Assembly (NCBI GenBank): GCA_023432985.1
Contig: JAEZEQ010000040.1
Location: 9,190 to 73,189 of the forward strand
Length of the DNA: 64,000 nucleotides
Reading direction: 5' to 3'
From: Bacteroidota bacterium
GTDB lineage: Bacteria; Bacteroidota; Bacteroidia; CAIKAF01
A program made the translations under genes and the position numbers. Positions 55,976-64,000 of the stretch are shown here, in pieces. Numbering within the stretch: the stretch's first letter is position 1; each line of letters starts with the position of its first letter. The notes beneath the pieces are model-generated. The model was given only the letters and a program-made list of their open reading frames with translations. It was not told the DNA's origin and did not search any database.

Positions 55976-57304
55976 CTATTTATACTTTAACCATTTAAAC
56001 AGCTCTCTGAAGCTAGGTTTTTTCCCATACATAAGTATACCTACGCGGTATATTCGGGCGGCTAACCAAGTAATGGCCACGAAGGATAAAATAAGAATCA
56101 GTACGGATGGAATAAACTCTGTCCATATACCCACCCCATGCGGAATACGCACCATCATAACAACGGGCGAAGTAAAGGGAATAAAAGAGAATACTTTCCC
56201 GGCGACCGACTCGGGATTCATCATTACGATAATAGCCGAAACATAGGCCAGCATAAGCGGCAAGGTCACGGGCATCATAAACTGTTGGGTATCACTTTCG
56301 CTGTCGACCATGGCTCCAATGGCGGCAAAAACGGCGGCATACAATAAGAAGCCCAGGCTAAAAAACAAGATAAATGCAAATGCCATTAATGCCCAGTTTG
56401 TACCCGAAAGTATATCGGCCAGTTGTCCGATATTCACCGCATTTTCGGAGGCATTATTGGCATTATATTGTTCCATTTCGAGCAATTTTTGCGAAATTTC
56501 GCTTGGATCTGCAAAACCAAGAAACAGAACGGATACAATTTGAAAAAGTATACCACTCATAAAAGTCCACACCAAAAACTGGGTCAGTCCCACCGCACCA
56601 ATTCCAATAATTTTACCCATCATAAGATAGAAAGGTTTAACCGAAGAAACCATTACCTCAATAATGCGGTTTGTTTTCTCTTCGAGTACGCCCCTTAATA
56701 CTTGCATTCCATACAATAAAATAAAAATATAGATTAGAATACTGGCGGCAAAGGAAATAATGCCGGCCACATCGGTATCGCGGGCATCGCTTCCTTTAAT
56801 CGGTTCAAGATGCAGGAATACACGAGAGCGAATTTTATCGTATTCATCCTTATCGATCGAACTCATTTCTATTTTATAGGCTTCGACCACTTTAGAGATA
56901 GTCCACTCCAACTCGCGCACTATAGATTGCGGCGGTTTTTGTCCGGCATACAACAAATTAATCCCATTTCCCACATTAAAAGGATCACGGTTTACATACA
57001 AAACGGCATCCCATTCTTTATCCTTTCCGGCTTTTTCCTGGGCTACAAAATAATCCGCTTCCTCTTGCACCAAAATTATATTTGCCGATCTATTTTCGGC
57101 CATAATGCGTTTTCCTATTTTCAAATCGCTATCATCCACTATATTGATGCGCACGCTTGGGGTACTTTCGTTCATAACCAAGGCTATCATTCCGCCATAA
57201 ATAAGCGCAATAAGTAGTGGACCCAGGAGCGTAAGCAAAATAAAACTACGTTTGCGTACTCTACTGAAATATTCTCTTTGTATAACTAAGGCAAGTGTCT
57301 TCAT
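55976..57304 (-). CDS. ABC-2 type transporter permease (NatB-like, large extracytoplasmic loop after TM1)
   Basis: N-terminal TM helix, an extracellular region of about 150 aa, then five TM helices carrying the ABC-2 signature. It is paired with the ATPase immediately upstream. Confidence 0.7.
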   Translation of the reverse strand: MKTLALVIQREYFSRVRKRSFILLTLLGPLLIALIYGGMIALVMNESTPSVRINIVDDSDLKIGKRIMAENRSANIILVQEEADYFVAQEKAGKDKEWDAVLYVNRDPFNVGNGINLLYAGQKPPQSIVRELEWTISKVVEAYKIEMSSIDKDEYDKIRSRVFLHLEPIKGSDARDTDVAGIISFAASILIYIFILLYGMQVLRGVLEEKTNRIIEVMVSSVKPFYLMMGKIIGIGAVGLTQFLVWTFMSGILFQIVSVLFLGFADPSEISQKLLEMEQYNANNASENAVNIGQLADILSGTNWALMAFAFILFFSLGFLLYAAVFAAIGAMVDSESDTQQFMMPVTLPLMLAYVSAIIVMMNPESVAGKVFSFIPFTSPVVMMVRIPHGVGIWTEFIPSVLILILSFVAITWLAARIYRVGILMYGKKPSFRELFKWLKYK

Positions 57305-57306
57305 TT

Positions 57307-58284
57307 CTATTCCGTTAAATCATTCGAAACCAAGGTGGCATCTCCGCCCACCGCTTTCACAAAAATCTGATGCATGGATGGTATATTCTCCTCTAAAGCC
57401 ACAATTTCAACGGCCGGCATCAAACTATGCAGAATAGTGTGCAGATTATTCCCGGGTAATAATTCCAACAAGGCCGTATGTATATCTCCTTCTGTTTTCT
57501 TTTCTACAATTTTAGCCGAAGTCCACAATGCATTCGAAAAATTCACCCAATTTCCTTTAAAAGAAATACGCCATGTTCCCGAGAAAAAACGCCTTTTCAC
57601 TTCTTTTACATTTCCGTAGAGTATGAGTTCGCCCTTATTCAGCAAAGCCATATCCGTACATAATTCCTCCACGGAATTCATATTATGGGTACTCAGCATA
57701 ATGGTCACCCCTTTTTTAGCCAATTCTAATATTTCATTTTTAATCAGCTCGGCATTAATGGGATCAAATCCGCTAAATGGTTCGTCTAAAATCAGAAAAT
57801 CGGGGTCATGAATTAAGGCGGCAATAAACTGAATTTTCTGTTGCATACCTTTAGAAAGATTTTCCACTTCCTTATTTTTCCAATCTGTCAACCCCAATTT
57901 CTCGAGCCAAAAATCGACCTTTACTTTGGCATCCTTTTTCGACAGCCCCTTCAGGCGCGCAAAATAAATCAATTGTTCGCCCACTTTCATTTTCTTATAC
58001 ATACCTCTCTCCTCGGGGAGGTAGCCCATACTACGCGAAAAGCCGGGCATAATCGGCACATTATTATATGTACAATACCCGTTATCGGGTGCGGTAATAC
58101 CTGTAAGAATACGAATAAGGGAAGTTTTTCCACTTCCGTTGGGACCCAATAATCCAAAAATAGAGCCTTTGGGTATATCAAAACTCACTTTTTTCAGGGC
58201 ATGATGACCCGAATAAAATTTATCTACCTGTGCTATTTCAACCAATCTTGACATATTATTCATTTTGGGGATTATCCGCAACAA
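57307..58284 (-). CDS. ABC transporter ATP-binding protein
   Basis: Walker A GPNGSGKTS, signature LSKGMQQK, Walker B LILDEP, and a C-terminal extra domain. The true start is probably at Met11 (about 58254), which avoids overlap with the upstream ftsB-like gene. Confidence 0.8.
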   Translation of the reverse strand: MLRIIPKMNNMSRLVEIAQVDKFYSGHHALKKVSFDIPKGSIFGLLGPNGSGKTSLIRILTGITAPDNGYCTYNNVPIMPGFSRSMGYLPEERGMYKKMKVGEQLIYFARLKGLSKKDAKVKVDFWLEKLGLTDWKNKEVENLSKGMQQKIQFIAALIHDPDFLILDEPFSGFDPINAELIKNEILELAKKGVTIMLSTHNMNSVEELCTDMALLNKGELILYGNVKEVKRRFFSGTWRISFKGNWVNFSNALWTSAKIVEKKTEGDIHTALLELLPGNNLHTILHSLMPAVEIVALEENIPSMHQIFVKAVGGDATLVSNDLTE

Positions 58285-58573
58285 TTATAAACACATCCTC
58301 ATCATCCTTCTTCATCATATATTTCTCTCGCGCCATTTTTTCAAGAGCCTGACGGCTATCATTCAATTCGTCCAATTTTTGAGTGGCTTTCAGGATCTCT
58401 TCCGAATAAAAAAGCGTATCCTTTTCCAGGGCTTCTAATTCTTTGTCGAGTTTTTGTTGATAAAAGAAATTCTGTTTATCGAAAAACACCATCCAAACAA
58501 GAAAAAAACCAATACTAATCAGATATTTATATTCCCAAAAACGGGTAAAAATAAGTTTAAGATAGTGTTTCAT
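58256..58573 (-). CDS. FtsB/DivIC-like septum formation initiator family protein
   Basis: 105 aa with an N-terminal TM helix (YLISIGFFLVWMVFF) and a coiled-coil region. The ending YMMKKDDEDVFII matches the 'septum formation initiator' family. Confidence 0.6.
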   Translation of the reverse strand: MKHYLKLIFTRFWEYKYLISIGFFLVWMVFFDKQNFFYQQKLDKELEALEKDTLFYSEEILKATQKLDELNDSRQALEKMAREKYMMKKDDEDVFIIVADNPQNE

Positions 58574-58647: not shown

Positions 58648-60489
58648 TTAATTAAGCTTATCTCCCCTCAAAATTCTATATCGTTTGCGTGCTTCGGCAA
58701 CAAAAATACTGTCTTTATGTTCGAGCATTATTTTCTCATAAAGTTGCATGGCTCTTTCGGTATTATTGAGTTGAAACTGAAAAATATCGGCGGCCATATA
58801 CAAGGCATCATCTACCAAAACCTCGGTCGGAAAAGCCGTCCAAACTTTTTCCAATGCATCCGCAGCCTCCTTATATAGTCCGATCTTGCTGTATATCTGT
58901 GCTTTTCTGAACAAAACCTCGTCGCCTATATGGTGGTCGGGATAAAAATATATGAGCGAATCGAGCAATTGTATTGCCCGATTGTGTTGATTTTGGTAGA
59001 AGGCCAAATCGGCTTTAGAAAAAAACTGTAAAGGGGCCCTTATACTGTCCCTGCCCAAATTATCGGTAATTAGGTGCGAAAGCCACATGGCGTCATTCGA
59101 AAACAATTTAGACGTACTGGCTTTCAATACCTTCATTTGTTCATGAGCAAATTCAAACTCCTCTCTAAAATAGGCAAGGCGTGCCGATCTGAACTTGGCT
59201 TCCTGACCGGGCAAATCATTTTTAAACTCCTTTTCTACCTGACCATACAAGAGGGTCGGTTCCCACATATCACCCGTGAAGAGCATGATATCGGCCAGTT
59301 TCAATTTAGCCTCCGCCTTCTTTATGCGCGACACATTAGCCGAAGCCAAAATCTGATTCAACAGGCTTATTCCCGACTCCGGATCTTCCTCATAAAATGC
59401 CATTAAATCGGCATAGTCTACCATCAATAAAGCCGTATGATCGCCCAGTCCCATTTCGTCCAAAGTCTGTTGATACAATGCATGCAATTTAGATAAAGCT
59501 TCCTTATCCTCAGCATAACCTTTGTCGAGCTTTATACGCATGGTACGCACCAATTCGGTTTTTGCAGTCTGATAATAAATAGAACTGACTCCTTTATCAA
59601 CTATATATTCGAAACAAGAAACGGCCATGTCATAATCGCCATTTTCGCGGGAAATAACTCCCAGTTCGAACACTTCCCGGCCACCCCCTTTTTGCCTTTT
59701 ATCTATAGCTTTTGCCTGTATAAATGCTTGTTTGAATTGCATTTGTTGCATATATTGCCAGTAGAGCAATTCGTTGTACATGCTTTCACTCGGGTTATTC
59801 TGTGCTTCTTTCAAAACCGCTTTTTTCCACTCCACCTGAAAAGGCCCTTCCGGGTCATCTTCCAGATAAGTACTTAAGGTCGATTTAAGGGGACTAAGCA
59901 ATTGCATATCCGATTTTAGAGCCTGCAATAAGGTCTCTGAAACAAGGGCGTATTGCTTCAGGGTATAATATAAATCGGCTTTTTCGAAAGCATAGAAATG
60001 ACTCCCCCCTTGCTTTTCCCCTTTTTCGTATACCTGCAAGGCATAATCGGTTTTACCCATTTGCTGAAATGCCGACGCCGTTCTTTTTACCTGATCGGGA
60101 AAGAATGGCATATTTTTCAAGGCATCGTCGTATAATTTTTTTGCTTGGCGAGATTCGCCTTTTTTTTCTAACAAAGCCCCATATTCGATTTTATACCATA
60201 CCATTTCAGGGAATCGCTTAGCTTGTTTTTGCATGAGCGACTCGACCATATCATCCTTGCCCCAACTGCGATACACATCCAGCAACTTGCGATGATAGCG
60301 TTCGCTGTACTGATTTTTGCTATACAATTGCTCGTAAATAGCGGCGGCCTGACTATATTCTCCCTGATTCATATAAGCATCTGCAAGACGCTCATCCTGC
60401 GCAAAAACTCGAAAAGGAATGAAAAGCAAAAGAAATATAATACACCTCATATACGACATAATCATAAGTCGAATATACAGAGAAATCAA
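58648..60489 (-). CDS. tetratricopeptide (TPR) repeat protein, secreted
   Basis: Signal peptide (FAQDE). More than 10 TPR-like 34-residue units (AYMNQGEYSQAAAIYEQL..., W-LG-Y-A patterns) run along its length. Confidence 0.65.
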   Translation of the reverse strand: MISLYIRLMIMSYMRCIIFLLLFIPFRVFAQDERLADAYMNQGEYSQAAAIYEQLYSKNQYSERYHRKLLDVYRSWGKDDMVESLMQKQAKRFPEMVWYKIEYGALLEKKGESRQAKKLYDDALKNMPFFPDQVKRTASAFQQMGKTDYALQVYEKGEKQGGSHFYAFEKADLYYTLKQYALVSETLLQALKSDMQLLSPLKSTLSTYLEDDPEGPFQVEWKKAVLKEAQNNPSESMYNELLYWQYMQQMQFKQAFIQAKAIDKRQKGGGREVFELGVISRENGDYDMAVSCFEYIVDKGVSSIYYQTAKTELVRTMRIKLDKGYAEDKEALSKLHALYQQTLDEMGLGDHTALLMVDYADLMAFYEEDPESGISLLNQILASANVSRIKKAEAKLKLADIMLFTGDMWEPTLLYGQVEKEFKNDLPGQEAKFRSARLAYFREEFEFAHEQMKVLKASTSKLFSNDAMWLSHLITDNLGRDSIRAPLQFFSKADLAFYQNQHNRAIQLLDSLIYFYPDHHIGDEVLFRKAQIYSKIGLYKEAADALEKVWTAFPTEVLVDDALYMAADIFQFQLNNTERAMQLYEKIMLEHKDSIFVAEARKRYRILRGDKLN

Positions 60490-60631: not shown

Positions 60632-62347
60632 TTGGGGGTTAAAATGAATAGAATTTTAAATTTCATATTTGGAGTTTGTCTGCTGGTCGGACTAAACGGG
60701 GTTTTCTATGCACAATCTTCGCACAATTTGGTTGAGACAATCAGTCTGTCCGGACTGGTGAAAACAGAAAGCGGTGTCGCTAGTCAGACCAAGATTGAAT
60801 TGTACCAAAACGGGAAAAAATTAAGAACCGTTTATCCGAATCCATCCGGTCGTTACGAATTGGAATTGAATTATCAGTCGGATTATGAACTGGTATATAC
60901 TTCTGAAGGGAATGTATCCAAACGCATGCTGGTAAACACCGAAACCAGCGGAGACGACGATGAATACGATATTCCTACGCTGAATTTCAACATAGAATTA
61001 CCCAAAGCAACAGGGGGACCTATTGACGAGGCATATGCACAACCGGTAAGCCGGCTTTTTATAAACGAGGAATTGGAAACCTTTGACCGCGATGCCAAAG
61101 TGGAACAACAATTTAAGAACACATTAAAACAAAAAACGGGCGAACAAAAAAAATGGATCCAGGAGCAAAAAGCCCTGGAGGAACAAAAGAAAAGAGAGGC
61201 TGAGGAGCTGCGTAAAGCGGAAGAATTGGCGCGCAGAAAGGCGTTGGAAGATGCAAGAGCGGCCGAATTGCAAAAGCAAAAAGCAGAAGCGGAACGTTTG
61301 AAACAGGAAGAAGAAGCAGCAAGAAAAGCGAAAGAGGAAGCATTAAAGGCCGAAGAAGAGCGCAAGAAACGGGAAATGGAGGAACAAGACCGTTTGGCAA
61401 AAGAAGCCTATGCCCAAAAACAAGCACAAGAAGCAGCTAAGAAACAAGCACTGGAAGAAAAAGCAAAAGCCGAATTAGCCCTTGCCGAAGAACGTAGAAA
61501 AGCCGAAGAAGCAAGAAAGGAAGAAGAGAAACGAAAGGCGATGAGTGAAGCTGAAGCCTTGAAAAACGCCCGCCTGCAAGCCGAAGCCGAAGCAAAACGT
61601 AAAGCCGAACTCGAAAGAGAGCAAATCGAAGCAAATCGGCTGAAAAAGGAACAGGATGCGAAGGAAGCTCAAGCCATTGCCGAAAGGGAAGCAGCCGAAA
61701 AAGAGGCAGAAAGATTACGCAAATTAAAAGAATTGCAAGAAATCGAAGAAGCCGAAAGAAAGGCCAAATTGCAAGCCGAACAAGAAGCCCTTTCTACCAA
61801 GAAAGCATACGAAATTAAGGCCGATGAAGAAATGGCCCTTTTCTTCAAGAGAATTATCGAAAGAGGTCAACGCAATCAAAGTCAAATCCTACAAAAAGCG
61901 CAACAAAAAGAGGCGGAAGAAAACAGCAAATTGCAAAAAAGAACAACCCAATACCTCGACGAAAAAAAGAAAATGGAGGAACTCGCCGAAAGAAAACAAG
62001 CCATGGTATTGCGGCAACAGAAAATTGCGACTGAGGATATGTCCTATAAAAAAGCAAATGAAATCAGACAAGGCAAACAAGATAAATTTGCAAAAGAATT
62101 AGCCGAAAGGGAAGCCAAAAGACAAGCCTTCCTGGCCGAGAAAAATCGCAAGGAAGAAGAAGCCGAAAAACAAAGAGCAGCCTTACTGGCCGAAGCCATG
62201 AAAAAGGGAAATAAACCCATACTCACCGTCTTTTCTTTTTATGACGGCAAATATTACGGCACGGTAAATTATAACGACGGCAAAGGAAATATTCCGATTA
62301 CGGAATCGGAATTCAAACAAATTCAATCTCAAATGGAAAATAAATAA
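60632..62347 (+). CDS. secreted protein: N-terminal carboxypeptidase-regulatory-like beta-sandwich, ~400-aa ER/K-rich single-alpha-helix (SAH) spacer, small C-terminal domain
   Basis: Signal peptide. GLVKTESGVASQTKIELYQNGKKLRTVYPNPSGRYELEL is a CarbopepD_reg-like fold. Residues 190-520 are almost purely E/K/R/A/Q with i,i+4 E-K spacing (EEARKAEELARRKALEDARAAELQKQKAEAERLKQEEEAARKAKEE...). A C-terminal module of about 45 aa follows. The multiple antisense ORFs in the track over this region are composition artefacts. Confidence 0.6.
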   Translation: MGVKMNRILNFIFGVCLLVGLNGVFYAQSSHNLVETISLSGLVKTESGVASQTKIELYQNGKKLRTVYPNPSGRYELELNYQSDYELVYTSEGNVSKRMLVNTETSGDDDEYDIPTLNFNIELPKATGGPIDEAYAQPVSRLFINEELETFDRDAKVEQQFKNTLKQKTGEQKKWIQEQKALEEQKKREAEELRKAEELARRKALEDARAAELQKQKAEAERLKQEEEAARKAKEEALKAEEERKKREMEEQDRLAKEAYAQKQAQEAAKKQALEEKAKAELALAEERRKAEEARKEEEKRKAMSEAEALKNARLQAEAEAKRKAELEREQIEANRLKKEQDAKEAQAIAEREAAEKEAERLRKLKELQEIEEAERKAKLQAEQEALSTKKAYEIKADEEMALFFKRIIERGQRNQSQILQKAQQKEAEENSKLQKRTTQYLDEKKKMEELAERKQAMVLRQQKIATEDMSYKKANEIRQGKQDKFAKELAEREAKRQAFLAEKNRKEEEAEKQRAALLAEAMKKGNKPILTVFSFYDGKYYGTVNYNDGKGNIPITESEFKQIQSQMENK

Positions 62348-62358
62348 TTGACGCAGCA

Positions 62359-62763
62359 ATGAATATAGACGAATTAAGGCCCGAAATGAAAGGAATTATT
62401 GTAGCCGCCATTATCGATACAGGCGATGTAAACCCGGGCGATTGGAATGTGTATCTGGCCAATAGCAATAATTTGCCTATAGAAAATGTAATGATTACCT
62501 CAAGAGGCTATGGCATACTCAATGATGAATCTCGAGAAACATCGACCATACGCTGGTTTTTCGAGAAAATAGAACCCCATACTTTTGTGATGATTGAACC
62601 CATTATGGAAGAGGTTTTCGGGCTTACCAACGAGTATTATGTCAGCTTTTATATGGACGGAATCATGTATGATAAAAAATATCTTTTTCTTCCCGAAAGC
62701 ATAGATCAAAAATACCTCACTTTGGTACCCGTAATTCAGGAAAAAGGCGTTATGCTCACCTGA
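62359..62763 (+). CDS. hypothetical protein (134 aa), co-transcribed with the SAH protein
   Basis: Starts 11 nt after the stop of the 60632..62347 gene. No signal peptide and no recognisable motif. Confidence 0.4.
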   Translation: MNIDELRPEMKGIIVAAIIDTGDVNPGDWNVYLANSNNLPIENVMITSRGYGILNDESRETSTIRWFFEKIEPHTFVMIEPIMEEVFGLTNEYYVSFYMDGIMYDKKYLFLPESIDQKYLTLVPVIQEKGVMLT

Positions 62764-63034: not shown

Positions 63035-63062
63035 AAAAAAAAGGGTCAAACCATGTTGACCC
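63035..63062 (-). terminator. rho-independent terminator of the OmpA-family gene
   Basis: On the minus strand: stem GGGTCAA / TTGACCC with a 6-nt loop, then UUUUUUUU (the A-run at 63035-63042 on the plus strand). It lies 18 nt downstream of the stop at 63080-63082. Confidence 0.6.
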
Positions 63063-63079
63063 TATAATTTTATTCGAAT

Positions 63080-64000
63080 TTATTCTTCCTCATCTTCCTC
63101 TGTATCTGTCGGCGCAGTGGGGTCTACCAGCTTAAACTCTACCCTTCTGTTCAAAGCGCGACCTTCGGCATTATCCGAACCATCCACATTTTTATTGGCA
63201 TAGGCGGGCTTACTGAAACTGTAATAGGTATATTTAATGCGATTGGCTTTTATGCCGGCATGGATTAACCAATCATAAGCCGCACGGGCACGATTCAAGG
63301 ATAATACCTTATTGTATTCATAGGTACCTAAAATATCGGTATGCCCACTCAACTCAACATGGGTTTCGGGGAAACGAGTCATTAATTGTTTCAAGGATTC
63401 CAATTCCTGAACGGATTCACTTTTCAAAGCATAACTGTCGAAATCGAAATAAATATTTTTAATGGCCATCAATTTACCATCCGATCTAGATACATAAAAA
63501 TCTTTCACAAACTCACTTGCTCCTTGAGCCACATTTATCTTCACGCGCTCTTCCAATATATTGTAGCCTTCGGCTTCTACCTTCACAAAATACACCTCAT
63601 TATTATTCAATTTTGTGACATATCCTGTTTCTGTTTCAGCCTTCAAATCGGCCAGTTTATCCTTATTTTCTTTATAGATGCTAATGGAAGCTGGAACACT
63701 TTGATTGCTGCGAGAATCAAATACCTTACCTTTCATGGTAAATACTCCGCTGCTTACTTGTTTGAATAGGGAAATATCTTTATTAATCACACCATACTCT
63801 ATAAGCGATTCATTGGTCGACAACATGTCGTCGTTACTTATAAATCCTTTCGATTCCGATAAAACAGAATAAGCTTGTCCGCGTGTCAGCGGAATGGAGA
63901 AACTCCCATCTTCATTCACCGTAAAACTGCGGGTTTCTTTGGTCATAATTTCAGATAGGGTAATCTTTCCGGCTATAGGTGTTTGTCCGTTCCCGTCGAG
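63080..64000 (-). CDS. OmpA-family protein (CarbopepD_reg-like beta-sandwich plus C-terminal OmpA peptidoglycan-binding domain); N-terminus lies beyond the window end
   Basis: C-terminal OmpA motifs (LSGHTDILGTYEYNKVLSLNRARAAYDWL...NRRVEFKLV) and an acidic tail (TEEDEEE). The frame stays open upstream of the first Met at 63946 up to the window end (LDGNGQTPIAGKITLSEIMTKE). No signal peptide is visible after Met 63946, so the gene is probably 5'-truncated by the window. Confidence 0.7.
   Translation of the reverse strand, partial: LDGNGQTPIAGKITLSEIMTKETRSFTVNEDGSFSIPLTRGQAYSVLSESKGFISNDDMLSTNESLIEYGVINKDISLFKQVSSGVFTMKGKVFDSRSNQSVPASISIYKENKDKLADLKAETETGYVTKLNNNEVYFVKVEAEGYNILEERVKINVAQGASEFVKDFYVSRSDGKLMAIKNIYFDFDSYALKSESVQELESLKQLMTRFPETHVELSGHTDILGTYEYNKVLSLNRARAAYDWLIHAGIKANRIKYTYYSFSKPAYANKNVDGSDNAEGRALNRRVEFKLVDPTAPTDTEEDEEE

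Follow-up and report, generated by a model that had tools for sequence, protein, structure and literature searches.

A candidate periplasmic tether from an uncultured Bacteroidota bacterium, with a carboxypeptidase-regulatory-like head and an ER/K-rich helical spacer

A 567-aa protein encoded in the window (the whole 64,000-nucleotide stretch of DNA that was analysed) joins a CRD-like beta-sandwich head to a 47-aa tail through a long ER/K-rich spacer that is predicted to be helical. It is tentatively read as a soluble, exported, anchor-less periplasmic tether with a single alpha-helix (SAH) spacer. According to this proposal, the protein would leave the cytoplasm through Sec, be processed by signal peptidase I and end up in the periplasm of its host, an uncultured freshwater Flavobacteriales/Bacteroidia bacterium. 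The ER/K helix, held by i,i+4 salt bridges, would span from head to tail, and head and tail would each bind an envelope partner. The helix would then act as a compliant connector with a long reach and not as a ruler of fixed length. The head itself defines a large family of exported proteins, apparently from Bacteroidota, that has so far gone without annotation and has no Pfam or NCBIfam model. Its members combine a head of the periplasmic docking type with an extended spacer that is hypervariable. If the envelope linkage holds true, they would matter for envelope organisation in Bacteroidota, where PorE has been proposed as the OM-PG tether (PMC12204202).

The 567-aa protein is the product of a real gene, with orthologs in the related genomes L011-L014. 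Its ATG at 60644 is used by independent gene calls on 20 public contigs, which give a product of 567-568 aa, and residue numbering throughout refers to the 567-aa form. The initial annotation had started the gene at an upstream TTG; both that 571-aa ORF and a 134-aa ORF 11 nt past its stop were recovered as first described. The gene and its parts are as follows.

60644..62347, + strand: gene for the exported head/ER-K helix/tail protein, 567 aa from ATG (ORF list, public gene calls, orthologs)
60632 (ORF 60632-62347), + strand: alternative TTG start of the same gene, 571 aa
60644..60712, + strand: signal peptide, residues 1-23 (MNRILNFIFGVCLLVGLNGVFYA), predicted signal peptidase I cleavage before Gln24
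60713..61093, + strand: head, residues 24-150 (LPKATGGPIDEAY..PVSRLF), seven-strand beta-sandwich plus family-specific extension
61094..62203, + strand: predicted helical spacer, residues 151-520 (AF2, charge-pair statistics, no heptad periodicity)
61124-61807, + strand: purest ER/K part, residues 161-388 (composition)
62204..62344, + strand: C-terminal module, residues 521-567 (…ILTVFSFYDGKYYGTVNYNDGKGNIPITESEFKQIQSQMENK), beta-hairpin/strand plus short helix (AF2)

Antisense ORFs over the gene, such as 60883-61365 and 61113-61427, had been set aside as artefacts. Their translations are low-complexity and rich in S, A, F and L, and the coding strand is strongly purine-skewed, with an AT skew of up to 0.68; the antisense ORFs therefore fit artefacts. 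A scan for sigma-70 promoters, which is unsuited to Bacteroidota promoters, showed no excess over shuffled sequences.

The sole hydrophobic 19-mer of the protein covers residues 4-22 (KD 2.0; next best 0.56), and the hydrophobicity scan detected no TM segment in the 567-aa protein beyond this N-terminal signal. Cleavage had been proposed from the outset, and the comparison with relatives bears it out. The signal ends in VFYA↓Q, an A/S↓Q junction is conserved across the orthologs, and [AGST]↓Q signals occur in 48 of 49 dereplicated metagenome loci of the wider family. The family members seen carry Bacteroidetes-type signal peptides, and the few with names are Bacteroidota. The Q-rule for signal cleavage in Bacteroidetes has been described (PMC5837995). 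A lipoprotein was rejected: Cys12 lies within the h-region (FGVC, no lipobox) and is missing in ortholog P0066, and the junction is A/S↓Q. Rejected too was a T9SS cargo, with no match to Por_Secre_tail or to type A or B CTDs in Pfam and NCBIfam and a tail of only 47 aa. From its sequence, the mature protein is predicted to reside in the periplasm.

AlphaFold2 (AF2) confidently modelled a beta-sandwich at residues 32-118. Its fold is the seven-strand prealbumin-like sandwich of the transthyretin/carboxypeptidase-regulatory-like type. The window protein has no Pfam match in the head, where the gathering score of CarboxypepD_reg (PF13620) is not reached; its relatives P0078 and P0087 also stay below the cut-off of 32.3 bits, at 18.7-20.8. 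A fold search with the full-length model re-found the head only, and PDB sequence searches with the full protein, the head, both tails and the 134-aa ORF returned nothing significant. Bacteroidota use CRD-like beta-sandwiches as periplasmic docking modules, for example the N-terminal extension of SusC and the CRD of PorE. The head shares the carboxypeptidase-regulatory-like fold with the SusC/TBDT extension and the PorE CRD. Unlike these, it adds a conserved segment of about 50 aa, falls below Pfam thresholds and is joined to a helix instead of a barrel or OmpA domain.

In a single-sequence monomer run (pTM 0.22), AF2 placed helices at residues 151-280, 284-388 and 395-520 with pLDDT of about 75-88. 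E, K, R, A and Q together account for 76% of residues 147-520, for 83% of residues 161-388 and for 67% of residues 395-520. The initial annotation had described about 330 residues made almost only of these five; this holds for about 230 aa, while the rest is less pure helix, with a break at about 389-394. Overall, the spacer contains 24% E+D, 26% K+R, 18% Ala, 10% Gln and 16% hydrophobics, and no Pro. The contents of hydrophobics and Ala both exceed textbook SAH levels. A repeat scan found no tandem repeat array at the DNA level in the helix region. At 0.15 nm per residue, the roughly 230 pure ER/K residues correspond to roughly 34 nm, and the approximately 370 helical residues to as much as roughly 55 nm if straight.

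Charge pairing in the spacer is strongly ordered. Opposite-charge pairs at i,i+4 number 86, as against about 47 in shuffles, and same-charge pairs 14, as against about 46; residues 161-388 hold 27 opposite pairs per 100 residues. The 3.5-residue hydrophobic periodicity is not significant, either in residues 161-388 (normalised power 0.5, p=0.59) or in residues 147-520 (p=0.06), whereas tropomyosin, the positive control for the heptad test, gave a power of 22 (p=0). Even in the best register, most windows have 2-3 of 8 a/d positions occupied, and none reaches 6, a number attained or exceeded in 25% of tropomyosin windows. Owing to this strong i,i+4 opposite-charge pattern and the lack of heptad periodicity, the predicted helix of about 370 residues looks like an SAH and not a coiled coil, as had been proposed. 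Both observations weigh against an oligomeric scaffold, in which the helices would assemble into coiled coils, bundles, or a periplasmic filament or sheet. Such assembly would be helped by the content of hydrophobics and Ala, above all in residues 395-520 (21% hydrophobics), which could pack into a bundle, and hinges could lie where AF2 interrupts the helix, at about 281-283 and 389-394. On balance, the scaffold is considered unlikely.

The SAH/ER-K helices known so far are mostly spacers inside eukaryotic cells. What defines them is a high content of R, E and K together with salt bridges (PMC5347031). The spacer resembles the SAH domains of myosin 6/10, caldesmon, CAF-1 KER and drebrin in being E/K/R-rich, in its enrichment of opposite-charge i,i+4 and i,i+3 pairs (PMC5347031), in having no hydrophobic seam, and in that long helices, predicted to be uninterrupted, join two functional ends. 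Those proteins are eukaryotic and cytoplasmic or nuclear, whereas this one is bacterial and exported. Relative to most characterised SAHs, the spacer is longer and richer in Ala and Gln, and its monomeric state is a prediction. Literature searches found no description of an SAH or a comparable periplasmic protein from Bacteroidota.

Word-indexed homology searches with the head and with a head alignment returned a fragment or short members only. The long ER/K proteins seem to be invisible to the word index, so an exhaustive phmmer search was needed. Its matches (E<=1e-3) group into 199 clusters at 50% identity. The proteins are 170-2300 aa long, and in all of them the mature form begins with the head. 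With a five-sequence ortholog alignment as the query, four GTDB species were found. The head also occurs alone in some short proteins and in SpoIIE phosphatases with a single TM segment (transmembrane PP2C), within the part predicted to be periplasmic. Because of its presence on these phosphatases, the head merits family definition even without envelope linkage.

Across the family, head and tails are conserved, whereas the spacer varies freely in length and even in its chemistry. The shortest spacers have 74 aa and the longest about 1000 aa or more; they can be ER/K-rich or proline-rich, and they lead to at least three types of tail. Among the orthologs the spacer measures 252-469 aa and in one of them is expanded by near-perfect repeats; in a sister subfamily it measures 74-991 aa and is ER/K- or Pro-rich. 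Identity to the closest ortholog is 74% in the head and 57% in the tail, compared with 40% in the spacer, suggesting that the spacer diverges faster than both ends. In more distant orthologs, the spacer is broken by a patch rich in Gly ('GTAGGGK.VYY') and by conserved 'ADSLF' motifs, and it is therefore no pure inert rod across the whole orthologous group.

These lengths bear on the molecular ruler of the initial annotation, in which the spacer would set envelope spacing at a fixed length. An ER/K helix that is long, looks stiff and has a globular part at either end would suit this role. In addition, a PG-binding PorE-like protein is encoded by an adjoining gene, and Bacteroidetes have no identifiable Tol-Pal locus (PMC12204202). 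Nevertheless, spacer length is not conserved even in orthologs, one of which is lengthened by repeats, and this argues against a precise ruler, as do the faster divergence of the spacer and its Pro-rich forms. A straight helix of 370 residues (about 55 nm) would moreover exceed the general figure for periplasmic width. The fixed-length ruler is thus an improbable reading and was not upheld. Since spacer length varies enormously in the family, the protein looks instead like a flexible periplasmic tether.

The extreme differences in length and the expansion by repeats also recall surface stalks, whose length varies. A 'periscope'-like cell-surface fibril or adhesin stalk would have to pass the outer membrane by an unrecognised export route. 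It is given a very low probability, the protein having no T9SS C-terminal domain, lipoprotein signal, barrel or autotransporter part and sharing its head with TM phosphatases that carry it on the predicted periplasmic side. Poor conservation of spacer sequence and length could also be expected of a disordered polyampholyte serving in hydration, crowding or buffering and having no mechanical function, with the head alone acting as a sensor or binding domain; the occurrence of the head by itself in short proteins and on signalling phosphatases would fit. Such a spacer is hard to reconcile with a highly non-random i,i+4 charge pattern of the helix-stabilising type, with the AF2 helix or with a conserved tail retained at the far end, and it is regarded as improbable.

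The tail had been noted as a small C-terminal module. In the AF2 model it is a beta-hairpin plus helix at residues 525-566, confirming a module of 47 aa. Its motif 'YG.VN[FY]GDG.G…TE.E[FY]' is kept in nine cluster representatives (alignment A3). The tail has no PDB, Pfam or NCBIfam match and no detectable relative of known function in these resources. Homology between this tail (type a, YG.VNFGDG.G) and type b (WGG.YYFKNG) was rejected (hhalign probability 1.4%). A weak profile match to the EF-hand of polycystin-2 in the PDB (E 0.5) raised a Ca-binding loop; it was ruled out, as the loop has no ligand residue at positions 1 and 5 and the AF2 model shows a beta-hairpin there.

Long periplasmic spacers are known mainly from the membrane-anchored TolA and TonB. 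An N-terminal hydrophobic segment, a long spacer and a small C-terminal domain are also the plan of a Tol/Ton force transducer or ordinary Tol/Ton component. As in domain II of TolA and TonB, the spacer is extended and of variable length, ends in a small domain, and in the family ranges from helical and charged to proline-rich (PMC12204202). The TolA model TIGR02794 matched weakly, at 17.2 bits (cut-off 59.45), and its match is confined to the low-complexity helix; no TonB_C or TolA_C was matched in Pfam. Unlike TolA and TonB, the protein has no inner-membrane anchor, motor-binding motif, TonB_C/TolA III domain or tol/exb operon. Its hydrophobic segment is a cleavable signal that is followed directly by the folded beta-sandwich. 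TolA was rejected on the cleavable signal in place of a TM anchor and the absence of tol genes nearby, and TonB on the absence of a PF03544 match at E<=0.1 (Pfam) and of Pro from the spacer. With no exbBD or tolQR nearby either, a Tol/Ton role is largely refuted and highly improbable, in agreement with the initial annotation.

The neighbouring features are as follows.

58648..60459, - strand: 603-aa TPR protein with its own signal peptide (…FRVFA↓QDE), divergent; Pfam TPR matches
62359..62763, + strand: 134-aa ORF, no signal peptide, of a wider family of unknown function
63042..63063, - strand: GC-rich hairpin then T-run, directly past the OmpA-family stop codon
63080..64000, - strand: OmpA-family gene, 3' part, running off the window, convergent; PorE-like/CHU_0125-like

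The 134-aa protein has 64 homologs and no Pfam domain. Its ORF lies 3' of the ER/K gene in five related genomes (including L011-L014), abuts the stop in L012 and is probably co-transcribed with the ER/K gene here. Five more distant homologs are found elsewhere, after topA or a beta-lactamase-fold gene, so the ORF is not the dedicated partner that had been suggested. Nor did the TPR gene prove a steady neighbour: it was matched in one of four related genomes (L011), partially and at a contig end.

At full length the OmpA-family neighbour is an 858-aa protein with TPR, PD40, CarboxypepD_reg and OmpA domains. Its beta-sandwich domains lie in the middle of the protein and not at the N-terminus, where they had been placed. 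Assignment to PorE itself (NF052230, 265 bits, cut-off 600; domain types shared) and to the CHU_0125 family (NF053607, 257 bits, cut-off 620) was rejected; it is a PorE-like paralogue. The adjacency of this gene is kept in L011-L014 but absent near wider-family members at the two loci inspected, and the gene is not among the annotated recurrent neighbour clusters of the wider family. The adjacency is lineage-local. The loci and neighbour clusters inspected show no conserved gene neighbourhood that would tie the family to an envelope system. A broader version of the tether, in which anchor-less tethers across the phylum would dock by their heads onto OM/PG-bound complexes (PorE-like, SusC-like, TPR) and by their tails onto a second envelope component, with the freely evolving ER/K- or proline-rich spacer as a spring-like coupling of long reach, is rather unlikely; if true, it would add a previously unrecognised element to Bacteroidota envelope architecture. 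The hairpin at 63042..63063 is probably the terminator of the OmpA-family gene.

The long charged protein (ER/K protein) is encoded in the following setting, coordinates for the first two entries being those of the ORF list.

Genes around the ER/K gene
60632-62347, plus strand: ER/K ORF, 571 aa from a TTG
62359-62763, plus strand: orf134, a 134-aa ORF beginning 11 nt past the ER/K ORF
Upstream of the ER/K gene, divergent, from ATG 60459: TPR protein, 603 aa
Upstream side, divergent: FtsB-like gene and an ABC transporter pair
63080-64000, minus strand, downstream and convergent: OmpA-family ORF, extending past the window end; full length in L001 (10723-13299, minus strand)

The first ATG of the ER/K gene lies at 60644 and is the start called on 20 public metagenome contigs with the same locus, giving proteins of 567-568 aa; residues are numbered here on the 567-aa form. 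Across the helix region purines strongly dominate the coding strand (AT skew up to 0.68), and the minus-strand ORFs listed there are low-complexity translations rich in S, A, F and L, so these ORFs are artefacts, as had been supposed. On the upstream side, the FtsB/DivIC-like gene (105 aa; 58256-58573, minus strand) overlaps the start of the ABC ATPase gene, next to which is an ABC-2 permease gene (the ABC pair at 55976-58284, minus strand). These genes are on the same strand as the TPR gene and downstream of it.

The ER/K protein is real and modular, with a head resembling a carboxypeptidase-regulatory-like beta-sandwich (CRD), a spacer of the single alpha-helix type and a small tail, and its sequence predicts export. 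Residues 1-23 are its sole hydrophobic segment (Kyte-Doolittle 2.0; elsewhere at most 0.56). The signal peptide ends in VFYA and is followed by QSS. The same junction of A or S with Q occurs in every ER/K ortholog inspected and in 48 of 49 dereplicated members of the sister (type-b) subfamily, which supports the cleavable signal peptide of the initial annotation. The junction obeys the Q-rule of Bacteroidetes signal peptidase I substrates (PMC5837995). Pfam, NCBIfam and hydropathy revealed no lipobox, T9SS C-terminal domain, transmembrane segment, TonB_C or TolA domain. The only Pfam or NCBIfam match was to TolA, at 17 bits against a cut-off of 59.45, and is compositional. Membership of the TolA/TonB group, which the initial annotation had rejected, fails on every defining feature tested. 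The protein would stay in the periplasm; a surface stalk is possible, with low probability.

AF2, run on the full-length single sequence, predicted helices at residues 151-280, 284-388 and 395-520 (pLDDT about 75-88), followed by a beta-hairpin or strand (525-552) and a helix (554-566) in the tail. Residues 147-520 consist of 24% E+D, 26% K+R, 18% A, 10% Q and 16% hydrophobic residues. Opposite charges are paired at i,i+4 86 times, compared with about 47 in shuffled sequences (sd about 3.6 per direction), while same-charge pairs number 14 against about 46; opposite-charge pairs at i,i+3 are likewise enriched. A 3.5-residue hydrophobic periodicity is absent, with a normalised power of 0.5 (p=0.59) in residues 161-388 and of 2.7 (p=0.06) over the whole helix. 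A tropomyosin control sequence, serving only as a method check, gave a power of 22 (p=0). The best heptad a/d occupancy per 28-residue window was mostly 2-3 of 8 and never as high as 6. The pattern is that of the salt-bridged single alpha-helix (PMC5347031) and not of a canonical coiled coil, in agreement with the earlier reading, the monomeric state being a prediction. An oligomeric bundle or a disordered polyampholyte is possible, each with low probability. The last third of the helix (residues 395-520) is less pure, with 67% EKRAQ and 21% hydrophobic residues, and could pack differently.

When the first 170 residues were searched exhaustively with phmmer against 1.84 billion cluster representatives, 199 proteins with this head were found at E<=1e-3. 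The head is N-terminal in almost all of them, and they range from 170 to about 2300 aa. It is usually followed by helical stretches rich in E, K, R, A and Q, which differ greatly in total length and in some cases alternate with TPR-like motifs. The C-termini fall into at least three kinds: that of the window protein, YG.VN[FY]GDG.G..TE.E[FY] (about 10 clusters), the commoner YKKV.H.WGG.YYFKNG..IS (at least 40 clusters) and one that is TPR-like (at least 13 clusters). No homology was detectable between the first two. The few named members bear the labels 'hypothetical' or 'TPR repeat protein'. A word-indexed protein search missed all the long ER/K family members, including the near-identical full-length protein, and exhaustive phmmer alone recovered them; the word index may under-represent low-complexity proteins. 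The ER/K protein belongs to a large family that is undescribed and whose spacer is hypervariable. Single-alpha-helix linkers and periplasmic spacer proteins are known kinds; the family itself is unannotated.

Single-pass SpoIIE/PP2C phosphatases carry the same head in what is predicted to be their periplasmic part, an arrangement that suggests a periplasmic sensing or binding module. Two proteins found with the head (window 60644-61153), P0196 (984 aa) and P0092 (765 aa), have a signal peptide, the head, a TPR-like or helical region, one transmembrane segment and a cytoplasmic SpoIIE domain.

Among GTDB species, scanned with one genome each, only four relatives of the ER/K subfamily turned up, all MAGs, labelled Flavobacteriales (two), Bacteroidia (one) and 'Candidatus Competibacteraceae' (one; this may be a mis-binned contig). 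Identity to the closest, L011, is 74% in the head, 57% in the tail and 40% in the spacer; for L012 and L014 it is 41-44%, 29-46% and 23-27%. Head and tail are better conserved than the spacer, which spans 252-469 aa in the orthologous group. In the more distant orthologs (L012-L014, P0068, P0069 and P0071) the charged helix is interrupted mid-spacer by a conserved Gly-rich non-helical patch (GTAGGGK.VYY) and by repeated ADSLF motifs; in the window protein only a short hydrophobic island is left there (EEMALFFKRIIERG, about residues 400-415). The spacer of the 699-aa P0071 contains near-perfect protein repeats, AARLKAEADAKAAAEAAAKKKAEEEA, indicating from sequence that in some lineages recent repeat expansion can lengthen it. 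The window gene lacks DNA repeats of this kind, and its helix region is no tandem-repeat array.

The initial annotation had proposed a molecular ruler. A ruler of fixed length is unlikely, because spacer length is not conserved and a straight 370-residue helix (0.15 nm per residue) would measure about 55 nm, more than typical periplasm widths. The helix would instead act as a long, compliant connector, with head and tail each binding something.

In L012-L014 the ER/K gene is followed by orf134, the convergent PorE-like OmpA gene, an aminotransferase gene and a polyphosphate kinase gene. The short L011 contig ends after the first three genes of this order, and in L012 orf134 begins directly at the ER/K stop. 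Co-transcription of orf134 with the ER/K gene is probable here. The orf134 product lacks a signal peptide and represents a well-conserved Bacteroidota family (64 matches) for which Pfam, NCBIfam and PDB offer no relative. Its homologs in five more distant genomes adjoin no ER/K protein; in three (L007, Solitalea lacus; L008; L017) they come directly after topA, and in two (L010, L018) after a beta-lactamase-fold gene. It is therefore not a dedicated partner. The initial observation is confirmed and its interpretation partly supported: the structure was right, and 'ruler' and 'partner' are unsupported.

The full-length OmpA-family neighbour (858 aa) has TPR, PD40, CarboxypepD_reg and OmpA domains and scores below the cut-offs of the PorE (265 bits; cut-off 600) and CHU_0125 (257 bits; cut-off 620) models, so it is classed by sequence as a PorE-like paralogue. 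PorE has been proposed to be a CpoB-TolB-Pal fusion that in Bacteroidetes tethers the outer membrane to peptidoglycan (PMC12204202). The ER/K head profile matches the neighbour's CRD domains weakly (E 5e-5 to 1e-3); the shared beta-sandwich type noted earlier therefore stands, but the domains are internal and not N-terminal. No OmpA-family gene adjoined wider-family members in two loci inspected or in the annotated recurrent neighbour clusters. A GC-rich hairpin at 63042-63063 looks like the terminator of the OmpA-family gene.

In the type-b sample (80 metagenome loci, 49 dereplicated groups) a divergent upstream set of small genes recurs. Its products are a TPR protein of 176 aa with a signal peptide (31 of 49 groups), a Cys-rich protein of 144 aa (28), a protein of 160 aa that has a signal peptide and matches no family (25) and, less often, a SiaC-family (PF09345) protein (10); on the downstream side, 10 groups have a PD40 propeller gene. 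Both the window ER/K gene and a short head-family member are also flanked by a divergent TPR gene, which may hint at a TPR partner. The window's 603-aa TPR protein was matched only in L011, partially and at the contig end, and not in L012-L014; the TPR link is absent from L012, where a flippase-like gene lies upstream.

Type-b spacers have a median length of 200 aa and range over 74-991 aa. ER/K-rich examples occur beside others with 11-49 prolines, covering the same helical-to-proline range as that described for domain II of TolA/TonB (PMC12204202).
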